From: Eledone cirrhosa
Lineage: Eukaryota
DNA: 64,000 nt
Assembly: GCA_964016885.1 (NCBI GenBank)
Contig: OZ024741.1
Span: 291,524,001-291,588,000, forward strand
Reading direction: 5' to 3'
Shown here: piece after piece, positions 27,535-63,350 of the stretch
Position numbering within the stretch: position 1 is the stretch's first letter
How the letters are laid out: each line of letters starts with the position of its first letter
Notes under the pieces: generated by a model
What the model saw: the letters and a program-made list of their open reading frames with translations, nothing else
The model's database searches: none
Told to the model about the DNA's origin: nothing
Position numbers and translations under genes: made by a program

Positions 27535-27969
27535 CATATACATATATATATATATATATATAAATACAAATAAAGATTCAGCGAGAATCAAATTTCGGCG
27601 GGCAGGAAAAGCGAAGGGAAACGCAAAAATCAGAAATGGTACTGGCAAAGTGCTCAATAGTTAAAAACCAGAGCTAAACAATGTGTTAAGAAGCCGTGCA
27701 AAACTGAAAAGAGGGTAAGAAGGCATTAACCACCCAAGCCAAAAACCAAATCAAGCTAAACAGGTCAAAACAAAATAAATGATAAAAAATAAAGAAATAT
27801 ATTTAAAAAAATAGAGGTGTGACATACGAGTTGTGATATATTAGTAAAGAGGAAAAGAAAATGCTGACGAATTTTTTCCAGTGAAAAATAGTTTAATTAG
27901 GAATAAGTATAAATTAGTAATAAGTAGTAGTTAGTATTCACTTTTAGTTTTAAGTTTTTACCGGTTGTA

Positions 27970-28024
<55 letters not shown>

Positions 28025-28063
28025 AGAGATGTGAGAAAAACCACAGAAACCATCTCAACTGTA

Positions 28064-28099
28064 CTTTTGAAAAGCAGAAGAACTGCGAAACCGGTAAAG
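28064..28099 (+). ncRNA. Minimal type I HHR, U3:A8 variant
   Basis: CTT-TTGAAAA-GCAG aagaa CTGC-GAAA-CCGG-TA-AAG, with palindromic ACCGGT stem III. Confidence 0.6.
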
Positions 28100-28229
28100 G
28101 AACCGAGTAAATATATATATTTTTTTTAAAATAAGACTCTAGTTGCATTTTCGATTTCATCTTTTTTTCTTTATACTTTCACTCGTGTAGGACAACTCAG
28201 TTATTTTTAGTTTTGTCCAAAAACCTCAC

Positions 28230-28272
<43 letters not shown>

Positions 28273-28277
<5 letters not shown>

Positions 28278-29195
28278 GGAATAGAATGAAACGAAATTTC
28301 ATTTCTCACTCTTAGTACGGCACTTACTTAAATGTAAGTATGTATGTATACGTACATATATATGTATACAGACGTACAGTAGTATATATATATATACGCA
28401 CATACACACACATATATATGCACGTATCGATTTACCGAACATTTATTATAATGCTCGGTTTGTTCGTTTGTAAACAAACAAACAGCCCGAATTACGCCGT
28501 ACAGTGTTTAGGCATCCACGTCACCTTTTTGTTCAACACTGTCACAGGAACGATGTACTAGTTTCAAGCTTATTAGCTATCGTCAGCATCGTATACCTTC
28601 CCGCCTGATGGTTGAACGTCTGAAAGTATATACTATCCTTATGCATATTAATGGCCGAGCAGCCTAATTTGCATATCGAGTGAGTTCTATCGGCTGGGCA
28701 CACCGAAGACGATAAATGTAATAGAATGAAACGAAATTTCATTTCTCACTCTTAGTGAGTGCCGTACTAAGAGTGAGAAATGAAATTTCGTTTCATCCTA
28801 CTCCATTTATCGTTTTCGGTGAGCCCGGCCGACTGAACTCACTCGATATGCAAATTAGGCTGCTCGGCCGTTAATATGCATAAGGATAGTATATACTTTC
28901 AGACGTTCAACCATCAGGCAGGAAGGCATACGATGCTGACGATAGCTAATAAGCTTGAAACTAGTATATCGTTCCTCTGTCAGTGTTGAACAAAAAGGTG
29001 ACGTGGTTGCCTAAACACCGTACGGCGTAATTCGGGCTGTTTTTTTTTGTTTACAAACGAACAAACCGAGCATTATAATAAATGTTCGGTAAACCGATAC
29101 GTGCATATATGTATGTGTGCATGTATGTATGTATATATATACATACTACTGTACGTCTGTATACATATATGTATGTACGTATACATACATACATA

Positions 29196-29200
<5 letters not shown>
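28273..29200. mobile_element. Family A element, head-to-head palindrome with two HHRs (28551-28591 minus, 28931-28971 plus)
   Basis: Arms are reverse complements meeting near 28760. Both carry CGATG-CTGACGA..GAAACTAGTA. Partial family A copies lie at 37460-37790 and 56290-56590. Confidence 0.85.
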
Positions 29201-31835: not shown

Positions 31836-32431
31836 ATATATATATATATATATATATACATACATATAAATATATATATATATATATAAATACAAATATA
31901 GATTCAGCGAGAATCACATTTCGGCGGGCAGGAAAAGCGAAGGGAAACGCAAAAATTAGAAATGATACTGCAAAGTGCTCAATAGTTAAAAACCAGAGCT
32001 AAACAATGTGTTAAGAAGCCATGCAAAACTGAAAAGATGGTCAAGAAGGCATTAATCAGACAAGCCAAAAACCAAATCAAGCTAAACAGGTCAAAACAAA
32101 ATAAATGATAAAAAATAAAGAAATATATTTAAAAAAATAGAGGTGTGACATACGAGTTGTGATATATTAGTAAAGAGGAAAAGAAAATGCTGACAAATTT
32201 TTTCCAGGGAAAAATAGTTTAATTAGGAATAAGTATAAATTAGTAATAAGTAGTAGTTAGTATTCACTTTTAGTTTTAAGTTTTTACCGGTTGTACTAAT
32301 ATATATGTGAATATAGACATAGAATATTCGAAAATATTCTGTATGTTTATAATAAACATTTTGAAGACCTAATCGCTATAGAATAGAATACGTCACGTAT
32401 TACAATTAGATTCTCGACAAAAGCAAGGGAA

Positions 32432-32474
32432 GTAATCTACGCGTTTCATTCTTGTTAGAAATCATCAGGACTAC
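32432..32474 (-). ncRNA. Minimal type I HHR (first of 11 minus-strand copies, every 310 bp to 35532-35574)
   Basis: GTAGTC-CTGATGA-tTTCT aaca AGAAt-GAAA-CGCG-TA-GATTAC. Confidence 0.88.
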
Positions 32475-35400
32475 ATATCCAGTGCTTTTATCGAGAATGA
32501 CACAGCTAGAGACTTATAGAATACTTAGCTGTGTACAGGAACTGGTTTGAAAGAGCGGTTGCCGGTCCGGCAGAAATTAGAAATTGGAATAAATGCTCTG
32601 AAATAGCGATATATATGTGAATATAGACATAGAATATTCGAAAATATTCTGTATGTTTATAATAAACATTTTGAAGACCTAATCGCTATAGAATAGAATA
32701 CGTCACGTATTACAATTAGATTCTCGACAAAAGCAAGGGAAGTAATCTACGCGTTTCATTCTTGTTAGAAATCATCAGGACTACATATCCAGTGCTTTTA
32801 TCGAGAATGACACAGCTAGAGACTTATAGAATACTTAGCTGTGTACAGGAACTGGTTTGAAAGAGCGGTTGCCGGTCCGGCAGAAATTAGAAATTGGAAT
32901 AAATGCTCTGAAATAGCGATATATATGTGAATATAGACATAGAATATTCGAAAATATTCTGTATGTTTATAATAAACATTTTGAAGACCTAATCGCTATA
33001 GAATAGAATACGTCACGTATTACAATTAGATTCTCGACAAAAGCAAGGGAAGTAATCTACGCGTTTCATTCTTGTTAGAAATCATCAGGACTACATATCC
33101 AGTGCTTTTATCGAGAATGACACAGCTAGAGACTTATAGAATACTTAGCTGTGTACAGGAACTGGTTTGAAAGAGCGGTTGCCGGTCCGGCAGAAATTAG
33201 AAATTGGAATAAATGCTCTGAAATAGCGATATATATGTGAATATAGACATAGAATATTCGAAAATATTCTGTATGTTTATAATAAACATTTTGAAGACCT
33301 AATCGCTATAGAATAGAATACGTCACGTATTACAATTAGATTCTCGACAAAAGCAAGGGAAGTAATCTACGCGTTTCATTCTTGTTAGAAATCATCAGGA
33401 CTACATATCCAGTGCTTTTATCGAGAATGACACAGCTAGAGACTTATAGAATACTTAGCTGTGTACAGGAACTGGTTTGAAAGAGCGGTTGCCGGTCCGG
33501 CAGAAATTAGAAATTGGAATAAATGCTCTGAAATAGCGATATATATGTGAATATAGACATAGAATATTCGAAAATATTCTGTATGTTTATAATAAACATT
33601 TTGAAGACCTAATCGCTATAGAATAGAATACGTCACGTATTACAATTAGATTCTCGACAAAAGCAAGGGAAGTAATCTACGCGTTTCATTCTTGTTAGAA
33701 ATCATCAGGACTACATATCCAGTGCTTTTATCGAGAATGACACAGCTAGAGACTTATAGAATACTTAGCTGTGTACAGGAACTGGTTTGAAAGAGCGGTT
33801 GCCGGTCCGGCAGAAATTAGAAATTGGAATAAATGCTCTGAAATAGCGATATATATGTGAATATAGACATAGAATATTCGAAAATATTCTGTATGTTTAT
33901 AATAAACATTTTGAAGACCTAATCGCTATAGAATAGAATACGTCACGTATTACAATTAGATTCTCGACAAAAGCAAGGGAAGTAATCTACGCGTTTCATT
34001 CTTGTTAGAAATCATCAGGACTACATATCCAGTGCTTTTATCGAGAATGACACAGCTAGAGACTTATAGAATACTTAGCTGTGTACAGGAACTGGTTTGA
34101 AAGAGCGGTTGCCGGTCCGGCAGAAATTAGAAATTGGAATAAATGCTCTGAAATAGCGATATATATGTGAATATAGACATAGAATATTCGAAAATATTCT
34201 GTATGTTTATAATAAACATTTTAAAGACCTAATCGCTATAGAATAGAATACGTCACGTATTACAATTAGATTCTCGACAAAAGCAAGGGAAGTAATCTAC
34301 GCGTTTCATTCTTGTTAGAAATCATCAGGACTACATATCCAGTGCTTTTATCGAGAATGACACAGCTAGAGACTTATAGAATACTTAGCTGTGTACAGGA
34401 ACTGGTTTGAAAGAGCGGTTGCCGGTCCGGCAGAAATTAGAAATTGGAATAAATGCTCTGAAATAGCGATATATATGTGAATATAGACATAGAATATTCG
34501 AAAATATTCTGTATGTTTATAATAAACATTTTGAAGACCTAATCGCTATAGAATAGAATACGTCACGTATTACAATTAGATTCTCGACAAAAGCAAGGGA
34601 AGTAATCTACGCGTTTCATTCTTGTTAGAAATCATCAGGACTACATATCCAGTGCTTTTATCGAGAATGACACAGCTAGAGACTTATAGAATACTTAGCT
34701 GTGTACAGGAACTGGTTTGAAAGAGCGGTTGCCGGTCCGGCAGAAATTAGAAATTGGAATAAATGCTCTGAAATAGCGATATATATGTGAATATAGACAT
34801 AGAATATTCGAAAATATTCTGTATGTTTATAATAAACATTTTGAAGACCTAATCGCTATAGAATAGAATACGTCACGTATTACAATTAGATTCTCGACAA
34901 AAGCAAGGGAAGTAATCTACGCGTTTCATTCTTGTTAGAAATCATCAGGACTACATATCCAGTGCTTTTATCGAGAATGACACAGCTAGAGACTTATAGA
35001 ATACTTAGCTGTGTACAGGAACTGGTTTGAAAGAGCGGTTGCCGGTCCGGCAGAAATTAGAAATTGGAATAAATGCTCTGAAATAGCGATATATATGTGA
35101 ATATAGACATAGAATATTCGAAAATATTCTGTATGTTTATAATAAACATTTTGAAGACCTAATCGCTATAGAATAGAATACGTCACGTATTACAATTAGA
35201 TTCTCGACAAAAGCAAGGGAAGTAATCTACGCGTTTCATTCTTGTTAGAAATCATCAGGACTACATATCCAGTGCTTTTATCGAGAATGACACAGCTAGA
35301 GACTTATAGAATACTTAGCTGTGTACAGGAACTGGTTTGAAAGAGCGGTTGCCGGTCCGGCAGAAATTAGAAATTGGAATAAATGCTCTGAAATAGCGAT

Positions 35401-36001
35401 ATATATGTGAATATAGACATAGAATATTCGAAAATATTCTGTATGTTTATAATAAACATTTTGAAGACCTAATCGCTATAGAATAGAATACGTCACGTAT
35501 TACAATTAGATTCTCGACAAAAGCAAGGGAAGTAATCTACGCGTTTCATTCTTGTTAGAAATCATCAGGACTACATATCCAGTGCTTTTATCGAGAATGA
35601 CACAGCTAGAGACTTATAGAATACTTAGCTGTGTACAGGAACTGGTTTGAAAGAGCGGTTGCCGGTCCGGCAGAAATTAGAAATTGGAATAAATGCTCTG
35701 AAATAGCGATATATATGTGAATATAGACATAGAATATTCGAAAATATTCTGTATGTTTATAATAAACATTTTGAAGACCTAATCGCTATAGAATAGAATA
35801 CGTCACGTATTACAATTAGATTCTCGACAAAAGCAAGAATATTCTATGTCTATATTCACATATATATCGCTATTTCAGAGCATTTATTCCAATTTCTAAT
35901 TTCTGCCGGACCGGCAACCGCTCTTTCAAACCAGTTCCTGTACACAGCTAAGTATTCTATAAGTCTCTAGCTGTGTCATTCTCGATAAAAGCACTGGATA
36001 T

Positions 36002-36044
36002 GTAGTCCTGATGATTTCTAACAAGAATGAAACGCGTAGATTAC
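36002..36044 (+). ncRNA. Minimal type I HHR (plus-strand copies at 36002, 36312, 36622, 36932)
   Basis: Stem I GTAGTC/GATTAC, CTGATGA, GAAA, palindromic ACGCGT. Predicted cleavage after A36038. The 36312 copy reads CTCATGA. Confidence 0.88.
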
Positions 36045-37131
36045 TTCCCTTGCTTTTGTCGAGAATCTAATTGTAATACGTGACGTATTCTATTCTATAG
36101 CGATTAGGTCTTCAACATGTTTATTATAAACATACAGAATATTTTCGAATATTCTATGTCTATATTCACATATATATCGCTATTTCAGAGCATTTATTCC
36201 AATTTCTAATTTCTGCCGGACCGGCAACCGCTCTTTCAAACCAGTTCCTGTACACAGCTAAGTATTCTATAAGTCTCTAGCTGTGTCATTCTCGATAAAA
36301 GCACTGGATATGTAGTCCTCATGATTTCTAACAAGAATGAAACGCGTAGATTACTTCCCTTGCTTTTGTCGAGAATCTAATTGTAATACGTGACGTATTC
36401 TATTCTATAGCGATTAGGTCTTCAAAATGTTTATTATAAACATACAGAATATTTTCGAATATTCTATGTCTATATTCACATATATATCGCTATTTCAGAG
36501 CATTTATTCCAATTTCTAATTTCTGCCGGACCGGCAACCGCTCTTTCAAACCAGTTCCTGTACACAGCTAAGTATTCTATAAGTCTCTAGCTGTGTCATT
36601 CTCGATAAAAGCACTGGATATGTAGTCCTGATGATTTCTAACAAGAATGAAACGCGTAGATTACTTCCCTTGCTTTTGTCGAGAATCTAATTGTAATACG
36701 TGACGTATTCTATTCTATAGCGATTAGGTCTTCAAAATGTTTATTATAAACATACAGAATATTTTCGAATATTCTATGTCTATATTCACATATATATCGC
36801 TATTTCAGAGCATTTATTCCAATTTCTAATTTCTGCCGGACCGGCAACCGCTCTTTCAAACCAGTTCCTGTACACAGCTAAGTATTCTATAAGTCTCTAG
36901 CTGTGTCATTCTCGATAAAAGCACTGGATATGTAGTCCTGATGATTTCTAACAAGAATGAAACGCGTAGATTACTTCCCTTGCTTTTGTCGAGAATCTAA
37001 TTGTAATACGTGACGTATTCTATTCTATAGCGATTAGGTCTTCAAAATGTTTATTATAAACATACAGAATATTTTCGAATATTCTATGTCTATATTCACA
37101 TATATATCGCTATTTCAGAGCATTTATTCCA

Positions 37132-37199
<68 letters not shown>

Positions 37200-37404
37200 A
37201 AAGAGAGATGTGAGAAATGTTGATATATATGTATAAAGAGAGATGTGAGAAATGTATAAAGATATGTATAAAGAGAGATGTGAGAAATGTTTTTAAAAAT
37301 AAGACTCCAGTTGCATTTTAGATTTCTTCTTTCTTCTTATTTTCTTTATACTTTCGCTCGTGTAGGACACCTCGGTTAATTTTCATTTTATCAAAAAAGC
37401 CCAC

Positions 37405-37464
<60 letters not shown>

Positions 37465-40014
37465 GGAATAGAATGAAACGAAATTTCCTTTCTCACTCTT
37501 AGTACGGCACTTACTTAAATGTAAGTATGTATCGATACGTGCATATATATATGTGTGCATGTGTGTGTATATATATATATACTACTGTACGTCTGTATAC
37601 ATATATGTATGTACGTATACATACATACAAACTTACATTTAAGTAAGTCCCGTACTAAGAGTGAGAAATGAAATTTCGTTTCATCCTATTCCATTTATCG
37701 TTTTCGGTGTGCCCGGCCGACTGAATTCACTCGATATGCAAATTAGGCTGCTCAGCCGTTAATATGCATAAGGAAAGTATAATATGCATTAGTAAAGAGT
37801 TGGAGCGGAAGTGAGAAAGAGAAAGAAAAACTCGGCCAAAATACTGAGCTGGCATTTTTTTATCGACCTTGAAATGATGAATGGGTAATTTGAGCTCGAC
37901 GGGTTTGGAAACGTATACCATACCGCAAAACATTCTGTTTGATATTCTAACGGCTCTGCTAATTCACAGTCGTGACCTCATTTACAGGTAGTTTAAATAC
38001 AAACATGACCAAGCTTCTTTTAATGTTAATTAGCCCATGGAAACAATACAGTTTAACAAGAAATTTATAGAATCCTTTGGTGGAGATCTCATTTAAAGAG
38101 AATAAAACAAATGATGCATGACTAATAATCCCAAGGTAATTGACGAAAACTTTGTAAATCTATTTAACTAAATAAAATGGCAAACACACGCGTGTGTGTA
38201 TGTGCGTGTGGGTGAGTATGTGTGTTTGTGTGTGTAGGTGTGTGTGTGATTGGGCGAGTGTGTGTGCGTATGTGTGTGTGTATGTGTGTGTGTAGCTGTG
38301 CGTGCGTTGTTGTGTATGCATGTGCATGCCCGCGTGCCCCGTGTGTGTGTATGTGTGTGTGAGTGTATGTGTCTATATGCGTGTGTGTATGTATTTGTGT
38401 GTAGCTGTGCGTGTATAGTCGTATATGTGTGTGCATGCACGCGCGCCACGTATGAGGGGATGTAAAATGAATGTACATATGTAAGTGTGTAGATATGTGT
38501 AAATCTGTGTGTTTTTGCGTAAATGTGATTGTAAGTATGTATGTGTGTGTGTAAATGTGCGTGTGCATGGGTGTGTAAGTATGTATGTGTAATTGTGTGT
38601 CTATATTCACATGTCCTTGACCTTCAAAAATACGTTGATCCGCCATTACCTTCATACAATTCCAATACAAGAGGAAGGAAAGAACAGACCTCTGTCAGTT
38701 TAAAGGATGAGCGTTCCAGTTGCCCGATCAACGCTAGAAACAGCTTATGAAATCAACGTTTAGGGGACTGAGCATTCCACAGACTTGTGTATCACTAACT
38801 AAATTTTCATAGCGATTCAGCGAATAACGGGTACAATCCGTTTATTGGGTTTCCAAGCGGCTTCTGTCAACCCAATTTCACTGATAGGACATGAGTCGAT
38901 CCGAGGCTCCATATTTCCAAGATAGCACGCAGTGGGTTCGAACCCGGAATATAATGATTGCATAATGATAAGCGAACTTCTTAATATTTTAACGTCTCAA
39001 CACTTCAGTATACACAGTGTGGGTGACATTCTTCGACAGTGTCAACTACTTTCAGCCTTGTTTCATTCACACATTACACGAACTCCAGAGGTGTTGGCTT
39101 TTAAAGTGACACCAGGGCCATATTGGTGTTGAAAAAGCCATTATTTATCTAAAGTTTGGAGGCGCCCTTGTTAAAAACCTTGCATCAAAATGACCTTCTA
39201 AAACTGAAACATATAAGCCTTTCTATTATTTCATTCTTACGGTGTGGATAAAATATTTCATCGACTTTCCCCTCCCCCAACATTTTTGCCTTCTGTCTAT
39301 ATCAAAAACTATTATCTTGAGCACTTGATGGCAGGGAGTGGCATATTCAGTACCTCTTCGGATAATATATTTTGCGGTTTGTGGCAAATTTGCCTTTCTT
39401 CCTTAGGGGATCAATATAATAAAGAACTAATCATGTACCGGGGTCAATATAATCGGCTCTCGCTTACCCAAAGAATTACTGATCTTATGTCTGAATAGAA
39501 ATCATTACTTTGAGACCCTTGCGTAGGGTGTCCCAAAGTGCTCGCTACCACTCTCCGGGGGGGGGGGGGAGAAGGTCCAGGACGTGATGGGGCCTAATGA
39601 GACGGTGGGGTGTGTCAGTAGGGGTGATATAATAGTGTATTAAATATCAAATGATACATATATATGTATAGATATAGTAAAAAAAATATATATAAAATAT
39701 CTATTTAGACATAGTACATATATTATTTATTGCACATAAATTAACGATTTTATTTATTATATATTATTTACAATTTGCGTGTAGGCAGTTCTCTCTGGAA
39801 ATAGGTTTGGGAGCGCTGAGGTTTTCATGTAGCCGAGAGGGGGTGGCTGTGGCTTAAACAATTTGAGAACCTCCGTCTTTGCGGTTTGTGAGGGCCCAAA
39901 CTAGATCACTTAGCTTACGCATACATCTGAAACTGAATGACTCTCTAAAACCGTTACCACACTGGATATATTAACATTTTCCAGTGTTAGAACATGTAAA
40001 AAAAAAATTCTATT

Positions 40015-55837: not shown

Positions 55838-56919
55838 TACACATGCATGTGTACATAGACACATACATACACATCAATATACACTCGTACAAAAATATAC
55901 ATACATGCAAAGAGATAAGCGTGCTAATTGTAATTATGGCAAAAAGAAGGTAAAGTTACATTGTGGTAGTGATTTGAGAAAAACTAGGATTTAGGATCAA
56001 ATGATGGCAGCAGCTGAGAAGGAATAAGTTTGTTGGTAGATGAGGTACTTACAGACAATTGTGTGGTATAGACTTGTGAAGGATATAGTATACTTAATGA
56101 ATATATTTCTGTGGGTAGTAGGTATCCTAATTTAAAGCTATGTTATGTTGGTTCGATTCACGGAGGTTTGAATCTTATGAATTTAGTAGCAATATATATA
56201 TATATATATATGTTGTGCTGAATAAGACACGTCCCACCCTTGCAAGCCGGGAAAAGCGGACGTAAAATGATGATGATGATATATATATATATGTGTGTAC
56301 ACGTACATACATATATGTATACAGACGTACAGTAGTATGTATATATATACATACATGCACACATATATATATATGTACGTATGGGTTTACCGAACATTTA
56401 TTATAATGTTCGGTTTGTTTACAAATAAATGTTCGGTAAACCCATACGTACATATATATATGTGTGCATGTATGTATATATATACATACTACTGTACGTC
56501 TGTATACATATATGTATGTACGTGTACATAATTATATTTAAGTAACAGCCGTACTAAGAGTGAGAAATGAAATTTCGTTTCATTTTTTCCATATATATAT
56601 ATATACAGTATATATGAAACGGATTACTCTCTCTATACATATATATGAGTGTTCGGAGCTAGGTGTCGAAAAGGCCCGAGTTCAGCCGCCGGGGCCCTAT
56701 ACTTTTCCTAGTGCCCACTTTACTACCCAAAGTTATGTTCCACCTGGTATCTTACCACACCCTCTTTGTTCTTTGTTATCTATATATATATATTGGAAAA
56801 TGTGTGAAATCCTTGGTACATTTAGGTATAGTTGCATGAAGAAAAATAATGATTCCACTTGTGGTTGGTATTCTAAACAATTTAATTTTAAAAGCCTAAC
56901 TGGTTTTTACCGCTTCCAT

Positions 56920-60739: not shown

Positions 60740-63350
60740 AGAAGGAAAGGGACCAGAACCAACTGGACGAAATAATTGAATAGAACTGTTATGCAATGTT
60801 ACCTGAAGAGTAACCCCAAGGTAAAAGGCTATAGGAAACGGATGCATAGCATCTGGAACAGATTGGTCTATTTAAATTAGATGAACAAAAATTGGCCGGG
60901 CAGGCTCGGGTAATAAGAACTAATGGGTGGATAAGCGAGCTGGAACTAGAGGAACTCAGCAGAGAGATTAGATTGGAAATGGAGAGTGGAGTATGCCAGG
61001 CAAACGAGCCAGTGGGAAATGAAGGTGAAGAGGTTGAGAGAACGGAGGAAGCATCCGAAGCAGAGATTGATCTGAATGCTGAAATAAATAATACCTGGAA
61101 CAAAGATATGGCCATTGAGGAAATGAATGCTGATTGGCTAGGACAAGATTTGGTTGATATCCTAAACTTAGTCTTAGTGGTAGATGAAATGAACAATGAT
61201 AGTGGGAAACCTATGAATCTAAGATTTGTAGACAGGAAAAAGTTAAAAGAAACAACAGCTAAGGTAAACAAAGTCATCCCATACCTTGAGGCGAGGAACA
61301 TTCACCAGTGCAACAATATCCTTTAGCAAATGCGCTGAGGAAATTACGTGGCATAAAAGCGAGAGGAAACAACAAACAAGAAAGATCAGAACCTTGGTGG
61401 AAGAAACGACTGAATGGTCAAATCAGAGAAATGAGAAATGACATTGGAAAGCTTGAGTCCTTACTGAATGGGACACTACAAAACATAGACACTAAAAATA
61501 GAGTGGAAATAAAGTACAAAACTAGGAGGAAAAAGTTAAATATTATCATAGAGGAACTGAAGCAACGCATTGTAGCAAAGAGCGCAAAGATTAGGCGATA
61601 CGAGAGCACAGTCAGTCAGTATAAACAGAACTGCATGTTTGACAACAACCAGAAGATATTGTTTGGACAGCTTGAAGGGAAAGAAAGAGGCAACGACTTG
61701 ATCCCTAAGGCGGAACAAACTAAGACATTCTGGAGAGGAATTTGGAAGCAGGATGTTGAACATAATGATCAGGCAGTGTGGATTGAGACAGTACAAAAGG
61801 AGATTAGTGAACAGGCACACCAACAAACTGATTTGAGTATCACAGTTGAAACTCTTAAGGGGCAGGCCAGAAAACTAACCAACTGGAAATCACTAGGCCC
61901 AGATGGTGTGCAGGAGTATTGGATTAAAAATATAACATCCCTCCACCCGAAACTGACAACCATGTTCAATGACTGCTTGATGTCAGCTGAGGTACCAGAA
62001 TGATTGACAAAAGGTACCACAGTTCTGGTAATGAAAGACCGAACCAATGGTAATGATGTTACCAACTATAGACCTATCACATGTCTGTCCGTAATGTGGA
62101 AACTGTTAACAAGCATTATGTCTGAGGAAATCTACCATCACCTCCACATAAACAACTTGTTACCGGACGAACAGAAAGGATGCAGTAAATTCCCGAGCTG
62201 TGTCTATTATTAGGTACAGTGCGGGAATTCTGAGATGGAATGTTGCTGAACAAAAAGAAATGGATAGGAAGACTAGGAAGCTATTGAATATCTACATGTT
62301 CCACAAGAGGAGTGATGTCGATAGATTCTACTTAAGGAGATCTGAAGGTGAAAGAGGTCTTATCAGCATAGAGGACTGTGTTCGGATGGAGAAAAACAAC
62401 CTACACAAATACGTGATTGATAGTAGGGAGCCAATGCTCAGAATTGTACTGAAGGAGAGGACAATAGACCAGGGGATGTCCAAGGAGGAAATAACAAGGA
62501 GAAAGAGTAACCTTCATGAAAAATCCCTTCATAGTACCGTCTTTGAGAAAACTGAATTTAGAGATCCACAGACATGGAACTGGTTGAAAAGAGGAGACCT
62601 TAAAAAGGCTACAGAAGGAATGCTAATGGCTGCGCAAGAGCAGGCCCTCAAAACGAAGTGGCTGAAACACCATATTTACAAGGAAGAGGCTAGCCCACTA
62701 TGTAAGATCTGTGGAGAGAGAGAGGAGACTGTGGCGCACATTGTATCCGAGTGTAAACACCTAGCCCAGACTCACTATAAAGGCTGGAGACATGATGTGA
62801 TGGGCAGGGTGATCCACTGGCACCTATGCAAAGTAAACAATTTACCACATTCTGAAAAGTGGTATGAGCATAAACCAGAGTCGGTGATGGAAAGCGATCA
62901 GGTGAAGGTGCTGTGGGATTTTAGGATACAGACGGACAAGAAACTGGAACACAATAGACCTGACCTGGTGGTTTTGGACAAGGGAAAAAGATCGTGCCTG
63001 ATTGTGGATGTAGCCTGTCCATTCGACACGAGAGTGCGAGAGAAGGAGAGGGAGAAAATTAACCGATACCAGGACTTAAAGTGGGAGGTAAAAAGGATTT
63101 GGAACTGCCATTAGCTCAAAGTGGCCCCGATTGTCAGAGGCGCACTAGGTACTATCTCAAAGAGTTTCCACGGATGGTTAAAGAAAATTGGTCCCACCCC
63201 ACTTTTTGGAACACTTCAAAAGGCATGCTTGCTGGGAACAGCAAGAACCCTCCGATACGTCCTGAATATCTGAGGCTGCAGGTAGTGGCTTGATATTCAT
63301 TTCAACAAACTTTCCAGTTAAATAACATCAATGACTGAGACTCAAAGAAC

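Follow-up and report, generated by a model that had tools for sequence, protein, structure and literature searches.

The window, a stretch of 64,000 nucleotides from contig OZ024741.1 of the Eledone cirrhosa assembly (GCA_964016885.1), holds an array of 15.6 near-identical 310-bp units that is divided into two divergent arms and carries 11 type I hammerheads on the minus strand and four on the plus strand. A sequence-only reading of this DNA had already described it in these terms, and both its unit number (11.42 + 4.19) and its hammerhead counts were borne out; of the limits given there, the right end at 37135 stands, while the left end lies at 32299 and not at 32301. The features are listed below with positions counted from the first base of the window. 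Phases within the unit are counted from the first base past the predicted ribozyme cut (36659, phase 1), and A and B are the two sites at which the arms end on the outside.

27555..28240, plus strand: paralogous empty site without the array, in which (TA)n at 27973-28021 is bordered by a matching left flank and a similar right flank
32299..35837, minus strand: left arm with 11.42 units, ending on the outside (3') at site A (phase 139) and on the inside at phase 11
35837..35837, no strand: head-to-head arm junction, one base common to both arms
35837..37135, plus strand: right arm with 4.19 units, ending on the inside at phase 109 and on the outside (3') at site B (phase 167)
36320..36320, plus strand: core G5 substitution in one copy only, the second plus-strand ribozyme
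36600..36684, plus strand: type I hammerhead domain (example copy) with extended stem I, cut predicted after 36658
36659..36968, plus strand: a complete unit between two successive cut sites, corresponding to the predicted 310-nt monomer or circle
37068..37085, plus strand: hairpin immediately upstream of site A, kept with altered letters in a sister family, as read from the alignment
37098..37135, plus strand: Penelope-type tail from site A to site B, among the stretches best conserved against the sister family
37135..37200, no strand: (TA)n target repeat, into which the right end of the array runs

Exactly three substitutions (34223, 36116 and 36320) were found over the 4,838 bases of the array, the same three that had been noticed before and no others, and TRF gave a period of 310 with 99% matches. 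The unit has a GC content of 34.5%. As previously stated, the array is without an ORF: the longest stop-free frame, with the unit translated as a circle, is 59 aa, and no ORF for an RT plus GIY-YIG protein was present in the array.

In the example hammerhead the core is intact at 36628-36634 and 36649-36652, stem II comprises 4 bp above a U.U mismatch, and stem III is self-complementary. Core, stems and cut site recur in all 15 full copies, with a core change in one of them; on the plus strand, cuts are predicted after 36038, 36348, 36658 and 36968. The change at 36320 is predicted, from what is known of the core, to disable that single ribozyme. Folding gave z = -7.3 for the ribozyme region, with its long extended stem I, and z = -4.1 for the monomer, the predicted hammerhead fold lying 3.1 kcal/mol above the minimum-energy fold. 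Because stem III is self-complementary and its two-copy duplex scores -9.5 kcal/mol, cleavage as ribozyme dimers would be favoured. The scan with hammerhead models that had been suggested earlier agreed in kind, the best Rfam match being Hammerhead_HH9, and fell short in score: the match reached 18.3 bits (E 0.054), below the cut-off of 52, and nothing in the window was found at gathering score.

In regard to the position of the array, the presence of an empty paralog with matching flanks and a plain (TA)n in the same window leads us to read it as an insertion into a TA repeat. No target-site duplication is discernible at the window array. (TA)n flanks are also found at other mapped loci of the family, which is large: exact-pattern searches of the 2.996-Gb genome recovered at least 14,634 ribozyme 3' halves and at least 1,228 B-end junctions, both being lower bounds, together with 1,197 matches to the A-end pattern, a count that is not a lower bound as part of the matches are internal variants. 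Control searches with reversed patterns gave 0 matches. A number of 14,634 units would make up ~4.5 Mb, or ~0.15% of the assembly. The first 30 B ends listed all belong to the same retrozyme family, with unit alignments at 96% identity or above, one short stray match excepted, and an LTR-like layout was found at none of the mapped loci. Dispersed copies with varying phases, anticipated from the window alone, are thus present as at least 1,228 exact B junctions and as loci with junction phases of their own. Unit size, type I hammerhead, lack of an ORF and multicopy dispersal support the retrozyme identity proposed earlier, and we regard the array as a single insertion from a young family of non-LTR retrozymes, which belongs to a known class.

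The architecture of the family was mapped at 51 sources, comprising the window, 20 best-match loci, which are biased toward the window haplotype, and 30 loci chosen by their B end and taken with 1.5 kb per side. The inversion is not peculiar to the window locus but the usual form of insertion in the family: 17 of the 20 best-match loci are two-armed and three are single-armed. Altogether 33 head-to-head junctions were found in the 51 sources. At the 24 two-armed loci whose outer ends could be classified, 17 of them picked irrespective of ends, the ends are 15 times A/B and nine times B/A, and pairs of like type do not occur; among the 33 junction loci, one beside an assembly gap fits neither end class and eight have an end beyond the examined stretch. 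Site A covers phases 127-139 (commonest 130) and site B phases 163-172 (commonest 165), with ~35 nt between them. The same exclusiveness is seen on contig C1, where, among the first 100 B ends listed, a divergent exact A partner was found in 46 (23 + 23) and a B partner in none, the A/B pairs spanning 0.6-6.9 kb. Fourteen apparent A/A pairs on this contig were rejected; they come from three places, in two of which the A pattern is an internal variant repeated at 310-bp intervals within an array, and ribozyme positions give the same reading for the third.

Inside these fixed limits the arms are variable. A single arm may be as short as 0.2 units or as long as 18, and the arrays, of 2-22 units, are scattered over more than 1,200 sites. 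The inner ends are uniform in phase (n=66, Rayleigh p ~0.6): 0/66 lie within 5 nt of the cut, and phases 1-25 hold eight of the 66 against 5.3 expected. The closeness of an arm start to the ribozyme cut (~10 nt), regarded before as a clue to the mechanism, is real at the window locus, where it measures 11 nt, but it is no family trait, and with inner ends at random phase it is due to chance. Microhomology of at least 2 nt (2-6 nt) is present at 12 of 24 insert-free junctions, against 17.7% expected (p 3e-4), while inserted bases occur at nine of the 33 junctions. Judged from these sequences, the two fixed outer ends and the inverted arm match the Penelope 'tail' and inverted-copy signature.

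Variants were surveyed in 49 clusters with about 340 units. Locus-wide variants are of 22 kinds, 14 of them present at a single locus only, and define 23 haplotypes; such founder variants are common to both arms of a locus. Singleton variants fill 93 rows, end and junction artefacts included. Intermediate frequencies were found in only four rows, two of which represent one deletion at L032, one an end effect, and one a real case (L067). The 11 core bases are hit by no locus-wide variant and by three singletons. Within the ribozyme domain, pairing is kept or gained versus broken in six versus zero locus-wide variants and in two versus 14 singletons (Fisher p 4e-4), where the test takes loci as independent though they are related and transition bias could inflate the pairing-kept count; the singletons tested were 17 hand-picked domain substitutions, one deletion from a noisy locus being left out, and 15% of the possible changes in the domain would keep pairing. 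The variant pattern and the pairing of the founders fit clonal copying of a circular monomer, and founders appear to be selected for a working ribozyme. The shared variants are equally compatible with one circle or with sibling circles of one donor. As there are 23 haplotypes in 49 clusters, a bottleneck of one monomer would have to be frequent.

The genome also contains a sister family with a 315-nt unit (L155), represented by 2,735 candidates that are 93-96% alike among the best matches. Its unit is colinear with the 310-bp unit around the whole circle and strongly conserved near the tail. In 18 classifiable loci of 30, the outer ends are 14 times A/B or B/A, three times A/A and once B/B. 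The sister family is older, and its end-pairing rule is looser. Insertions of one to two units occur chiefly in this family.

A scan of the genome for GIY-YIG yielded 10,596 first-look candidates, of which 150 were scored, and revealed a genome rich in PLEs, whose autonomous families also have the two-armed, tailed layout with (TA)n. One very young PLE, with a 4,202-bp unit and its own hammerhead, is 99.6-99.9% alike between loci, and its first end lies ~128 nt past the cut, as in the 310-bp retrozyme. At G000:C4:322.58 Mb copies of this element stand in tandem in both arms, about three units on one side and nearly two on the other, and private variants are common to both wherever the units overlap. 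Among the relatives of its protein, the named ones are from bivalve molluscs or from samples associated with bivalves, and its two-frame layout is already known for PLEs (PMC8557442). By age and geometry this PLE is the best candidate partner of the 310-bp retrozyme, with weak support from sequence: two weak, AT-rich local matches between the unit and PLEs (p 0.003 each) were obtained among 10 comparisons with PLEs or other families, they involve different families, and neither was repeated with the sister family. None of the 53 GIY-YIG/PLE loci examined holds a PLE that is clearly akin to the unit in sequence, and no parent element was named by 20 long-frame loci, protein search or local alignments. 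A degenerate tail pattern was discarded as a route to the parent, its 23 matches being read as retrozyme relatives, and a ribozyme look-alike in L116, L119 and L127 was discarded as a partner, as it belongs to a separate short non-coding family.

Sampled words of the unit are also contained, to 70-100%, in 20 sequencing runs, which represent 16 studies and 17 coded organisms. Four runs were inspected closely, namely X1, X3 and X5 from these 20 and, in addition, X24. The independent run X1 holds the unit together with host flank, many variants, and loose ends that pass into TA at site A. In X3 and X5 the unit takes the form of a single circular contig of 340 nt (0 and 1 differences, respectively), and the flank is almost absent, X3 having one low-depth flank contig. 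Circular contigs also arise from tandem DNA. In run X24, which consists of raw reads from organism K and belongs to the same study as the unit-holding run X13, 1,938 million letters contained 0 reads on the unit. For the unit in runs of other organisms, carry-over of a high-copy repeat is a simpler explanation than horizontal transfer, which we consider very improbable. None of the runs listed with the unit is recorded as RNA, and they are no evidence either way on expression.

We propose that the 310-bp unit is a non-autonomous retrozyme moved by the RT/GIY-YIG protein of a PLE through rolling-circle copying, and we assign to this whole model a probability of about 75%; mobilisation by a PLE, taken alone, seems very likely. 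Both Penelope-type mobilisation and a rolling-circle origin had been suggested from the window, and they gained support from the A/B ends, the clonal arms and the arrays of the 4,202-bp PLE. According to the proposed model, array transcripts would self-cleave, probably as ribozyme dimers, into 310-nt monomers that would be ligated to circles, as expected from the class. The PLE protein may then bind the circle near the conserved tail and cut both strands of a (TA)n target, after which the two cDNAs would be primed separately, at site A and at site B respectively, in agreement with the observed geometry of ends ~35 nt apart. Each polymerase would travel around the circle a variable number of times, giving arms of 0.2-18 units, and halt at a random phase, and the two cDNAs would be joined head to head, often via microhomology of 2-6 nt. 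Each insertion would thereby derive clonally from a single monomer, and new loci would be founded only by monomers whose ribozyme works. In a more specific version, double rolling-circle target-primed reverse transcription, one Penelope-type complex would act on one RNA circle with its active sites at A and B, and the 4.2-kb autonomous element would propagate likewise; for this version we see the chances as even. If it is true, the hammerhead of PLEs exists to make a circular template, and a single reaction yields tail, inversion and tandem repeats alike, with more than 1,200 near-fresh insertions as its record.

Alternatively, the same PLE machinery, with the same A/B priming, could copy long uncleaved linear multimers, circles being a side product or an occasional bottleneck. 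A lizard PLE inserts unprocessed linear RNA in vitro and does not need the ribozyme (PMC11167929), and a U.U-closed stem II with a weak stem III goes with poor monomer cleavage in axolotl retrozymes, 6-22% in 1 h (PMC7229834); a clonal donor array would also yield daughters that look clonal. However, new locus-wide variants require a one-monomer bottleneck, which the haplotype number makes frequent, partly cleaved transcripts should end at the cut, where no inner end was found, and founding variants are under apparent selection for the ribozyme fold. We consequently rate copying of linear multimers as unlikely. Expansion at the DNA level, by unequal crossing-over or slippage after short PLE-type insertions, has been suggested for vertebrate retrozymes (bioRxiv 10.64898/2026.07.22.740005), and the one- to two-unit insertions, mostly of the sister family, could represent its starting structures. 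Such stepwise growth should, however, leave mutations shared by subsets of units, of which the four intermediate rows are the only trace, and it would have to place founder variants in both arms and to produce arrays of 2-22 units at more than 1,200 sites, the one in the window with only 3 of 4,838 bases different, so that this explanation is highly improbable. Finally, near-identical tandem and inverted repeats assemble poorly, locus L038 looks noisy and L048 adjoins a gap, yet an assembly artefact or foreign DNA is barely credible given many loci on many contigs with their own junction phases and haplotypes, the empty paralog in the window, and the unit with host flank in the independent run X1.

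Having placed the proposed rolling-circle model among its competitors, we can compare the family with known systems. Metazoan non-LTR retrozymes, as described by Cervera and de la Pena 2020 (PMC7229834) and by Li, Clavereau and Pollet 2026 (bioRxiv 10.64898/2026.07.22.740005), likewise have tandem units of 150-450 bp with GC below 50%, a type I hammerhead per unit, no ORF, thousands of copies and coexisting PLEs. In axolotl retrozyme families (PMC7229834), too, stem III may consist of a single pair with a palindromic tetraloop, and a U.U may underlie stem II. On the other hand, the known retrozymes of these two studies form head-to-tail tandems with occasional long target-site duplications, whereas here two divergent arms, paired A/B ends and (TA)n are found and no duplication is visible. 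Circles have been demonstrated for known metazoan retrozymes; for the 310-bp family they are a prediction.

The insertion signature of PLEs includes an inverted truncated copy, a 30-40-bp tail at one end and a (TA)n bias (Craig et al. 2021, PMC8557442), and for the Anolis element PAc the tail was explained as the span between two internal RT start sites, both target strands being cut and extended (Frangieh et al. 2024, PMC11167929). The 310-bp family resembles endonuclease-positive PLEs in the inverted 5'-truncated arm, the 30-40-bp tail at one end, the (TA)n or AT-rich target and the two internal start sites downstream of the hammerhead, while the strict pairing of one A and one B per insertion is not among the PLE features described in the parts of these two papers used here. 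Non-autonomous Chlamys elements, such as MRC1, are similarly non-coding PLE passengers, often in multicopy head-to-tail insertions, but their 3' ends resemble those of their autonomous families, and hammerheads are absent from most Chlamys elements (PMC8557442); for the 310-bp family no such parent was found among the loci examined. In contrast to endonuclease-positive PLEs, the 310-bp family is without an ORF and repeats its 310-nt unit up to 18x per arm. Twin priming of L1 also produces a head-to-head inversion, as both target strands prime and microhomology joins the products, the second primer being placed at variable internal sites and the arms copying different parts of one linear RNA. 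In the retrozyme, unlike in L1, neither start site varies, and the complete unit is repeated in each arm.

The sequence-only reading took the family to be undescribed. The class has in fact been described already, but in the open literature (the supplements of PMC7229834 and bioRxiv 10.64898/2026.07.22.740005, subscription papers and repeat databases lying outside this scope) we found neither the 310-bp family nor any retrozyme with inverted arms and paired A/B ends; what appears to be new is the family with its two-armed, tailed architecture. The mobilising enzyme and circular template of animal retrozymes are hypotheses in PMC7229834, PMC7761336 and PMC4209133, the last of which also tentatively proposes circular templates for PLEs; the mobilisation mechanism remains to be worked out according to bioRxiv 10.64898/2026.07.22.740005, and the role of the PLE hammerhead is called unclear in PMC8557442. 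The form of the insertions appears to tie a retrozyme family to Penelope-type machinery and favours circular templates, and the 310-bp family represents a record of the insertion reaction in about a thousand very young copies. As the substrate measures 310 nt, its start sites are mapped and the genome itself offers a young candidate enzyme, the in vitro assay that exists for PLEs can put the circle model to a direct test.

Of the genomic loci elsewhere in the assembly that hold arrays of the 310-bp hammerhead retrozyme (L031-L080), L034, L044 and L046 include three arms very near a whole-unit multiple (10.00, 4.00 and 3.97 units), and these arms stop close to their own start at site A, around position 130 of the unit counted from the ribozyme cut. 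Pairing of a TA-like stretch with the target may be the cause of such lengths. Among L031-L080, some locus-wide variants (unit positions 20, 211 and 276) were found on several haplotype backgrounds, hinting at recurrent mutation or at template switching between circles. At the filled site in the window, the TA repeat is directly followed by three copies of a 35-bp unit (37188-37291), missing from the empty paralog at 27555-28240 and perhaps representing a repair scar. The 310-bp unit was also found, nearly unaltered, in sequencing runs from 17 organisms, and two of the runs (X3 and X5) each contained it as a single circular contig standing alone. These occurrences most likely stem from a high-copy repeat being carried over.

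Three further hammerhead repeat families were distinguished:

Window 1021-2097, 28272-29196, 37459-37781 and 56290-56596: family with a 442-bp unit, distinct from the 310-bp retrozyme
L082 2449-2870 and L131-L160: sister retrozyme family, unit about 315 nt, older than the 310-bp family
L116 7500-7705, L119 680-815 and L127 3130-3326: third short, non-coding family

The 442-bp family is likewise two-armed and flanked by TA repeats, stem III of its hammerhead is palindromic, and a related ribozyme is repeated at a spacing of 511 bp in L121. Insertions of the sister family comprise 1-3 units in most cases and have the tail region, the roughly 35-nt span between site A and site B (position ~165), in common with the 310-bp family; more divergent relatives are included in L191-L213. 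In the third family, the ribozyme core is nearly the same as that of the 310-bp unit, the insertions lie in TA repeats, and their arms fold back.

Reverse transcriptase (RT) sequences, including Penelope-like elements (PLEs), were found both in the window and elsewhere in the genome:

Window 2430-3976, 19061-21936 and 60850-63114: decayed LINE-type RT fragments
Window 22238-24933: broken PLE-like RT and endonuclease frames in an inverted layout
L111 3806-6598: PLE copy, open 930-aa frame, RT and C-terminal GIY-YIG
L113 1988-5065: PLE copy, open 1,025-aa frame, RT and C-terminal GIY-YIG
L214-L218, L114, L115, L120 and L125: very young, autonomous-looking 4,202-bp PLE carrying a hammerhead

Within the first LINE-type fragment, Pfam matched RVT_1 at 3332-3976, the other two being assigned by eye from translated frames. 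The PLE-like frames at 22238-24933 were also read by eye from translation, and Pfam gave no relevant match for them. Arrays of the 4,202-bp PLE are tandem, two-armed and clonal, and at the three loci that were translated the element has two overlapping frames, which measure 476 aa and 775 aa between stop codons. In the L113 PLE, a 38-nt tail lies immediately 5′ of the start codon.
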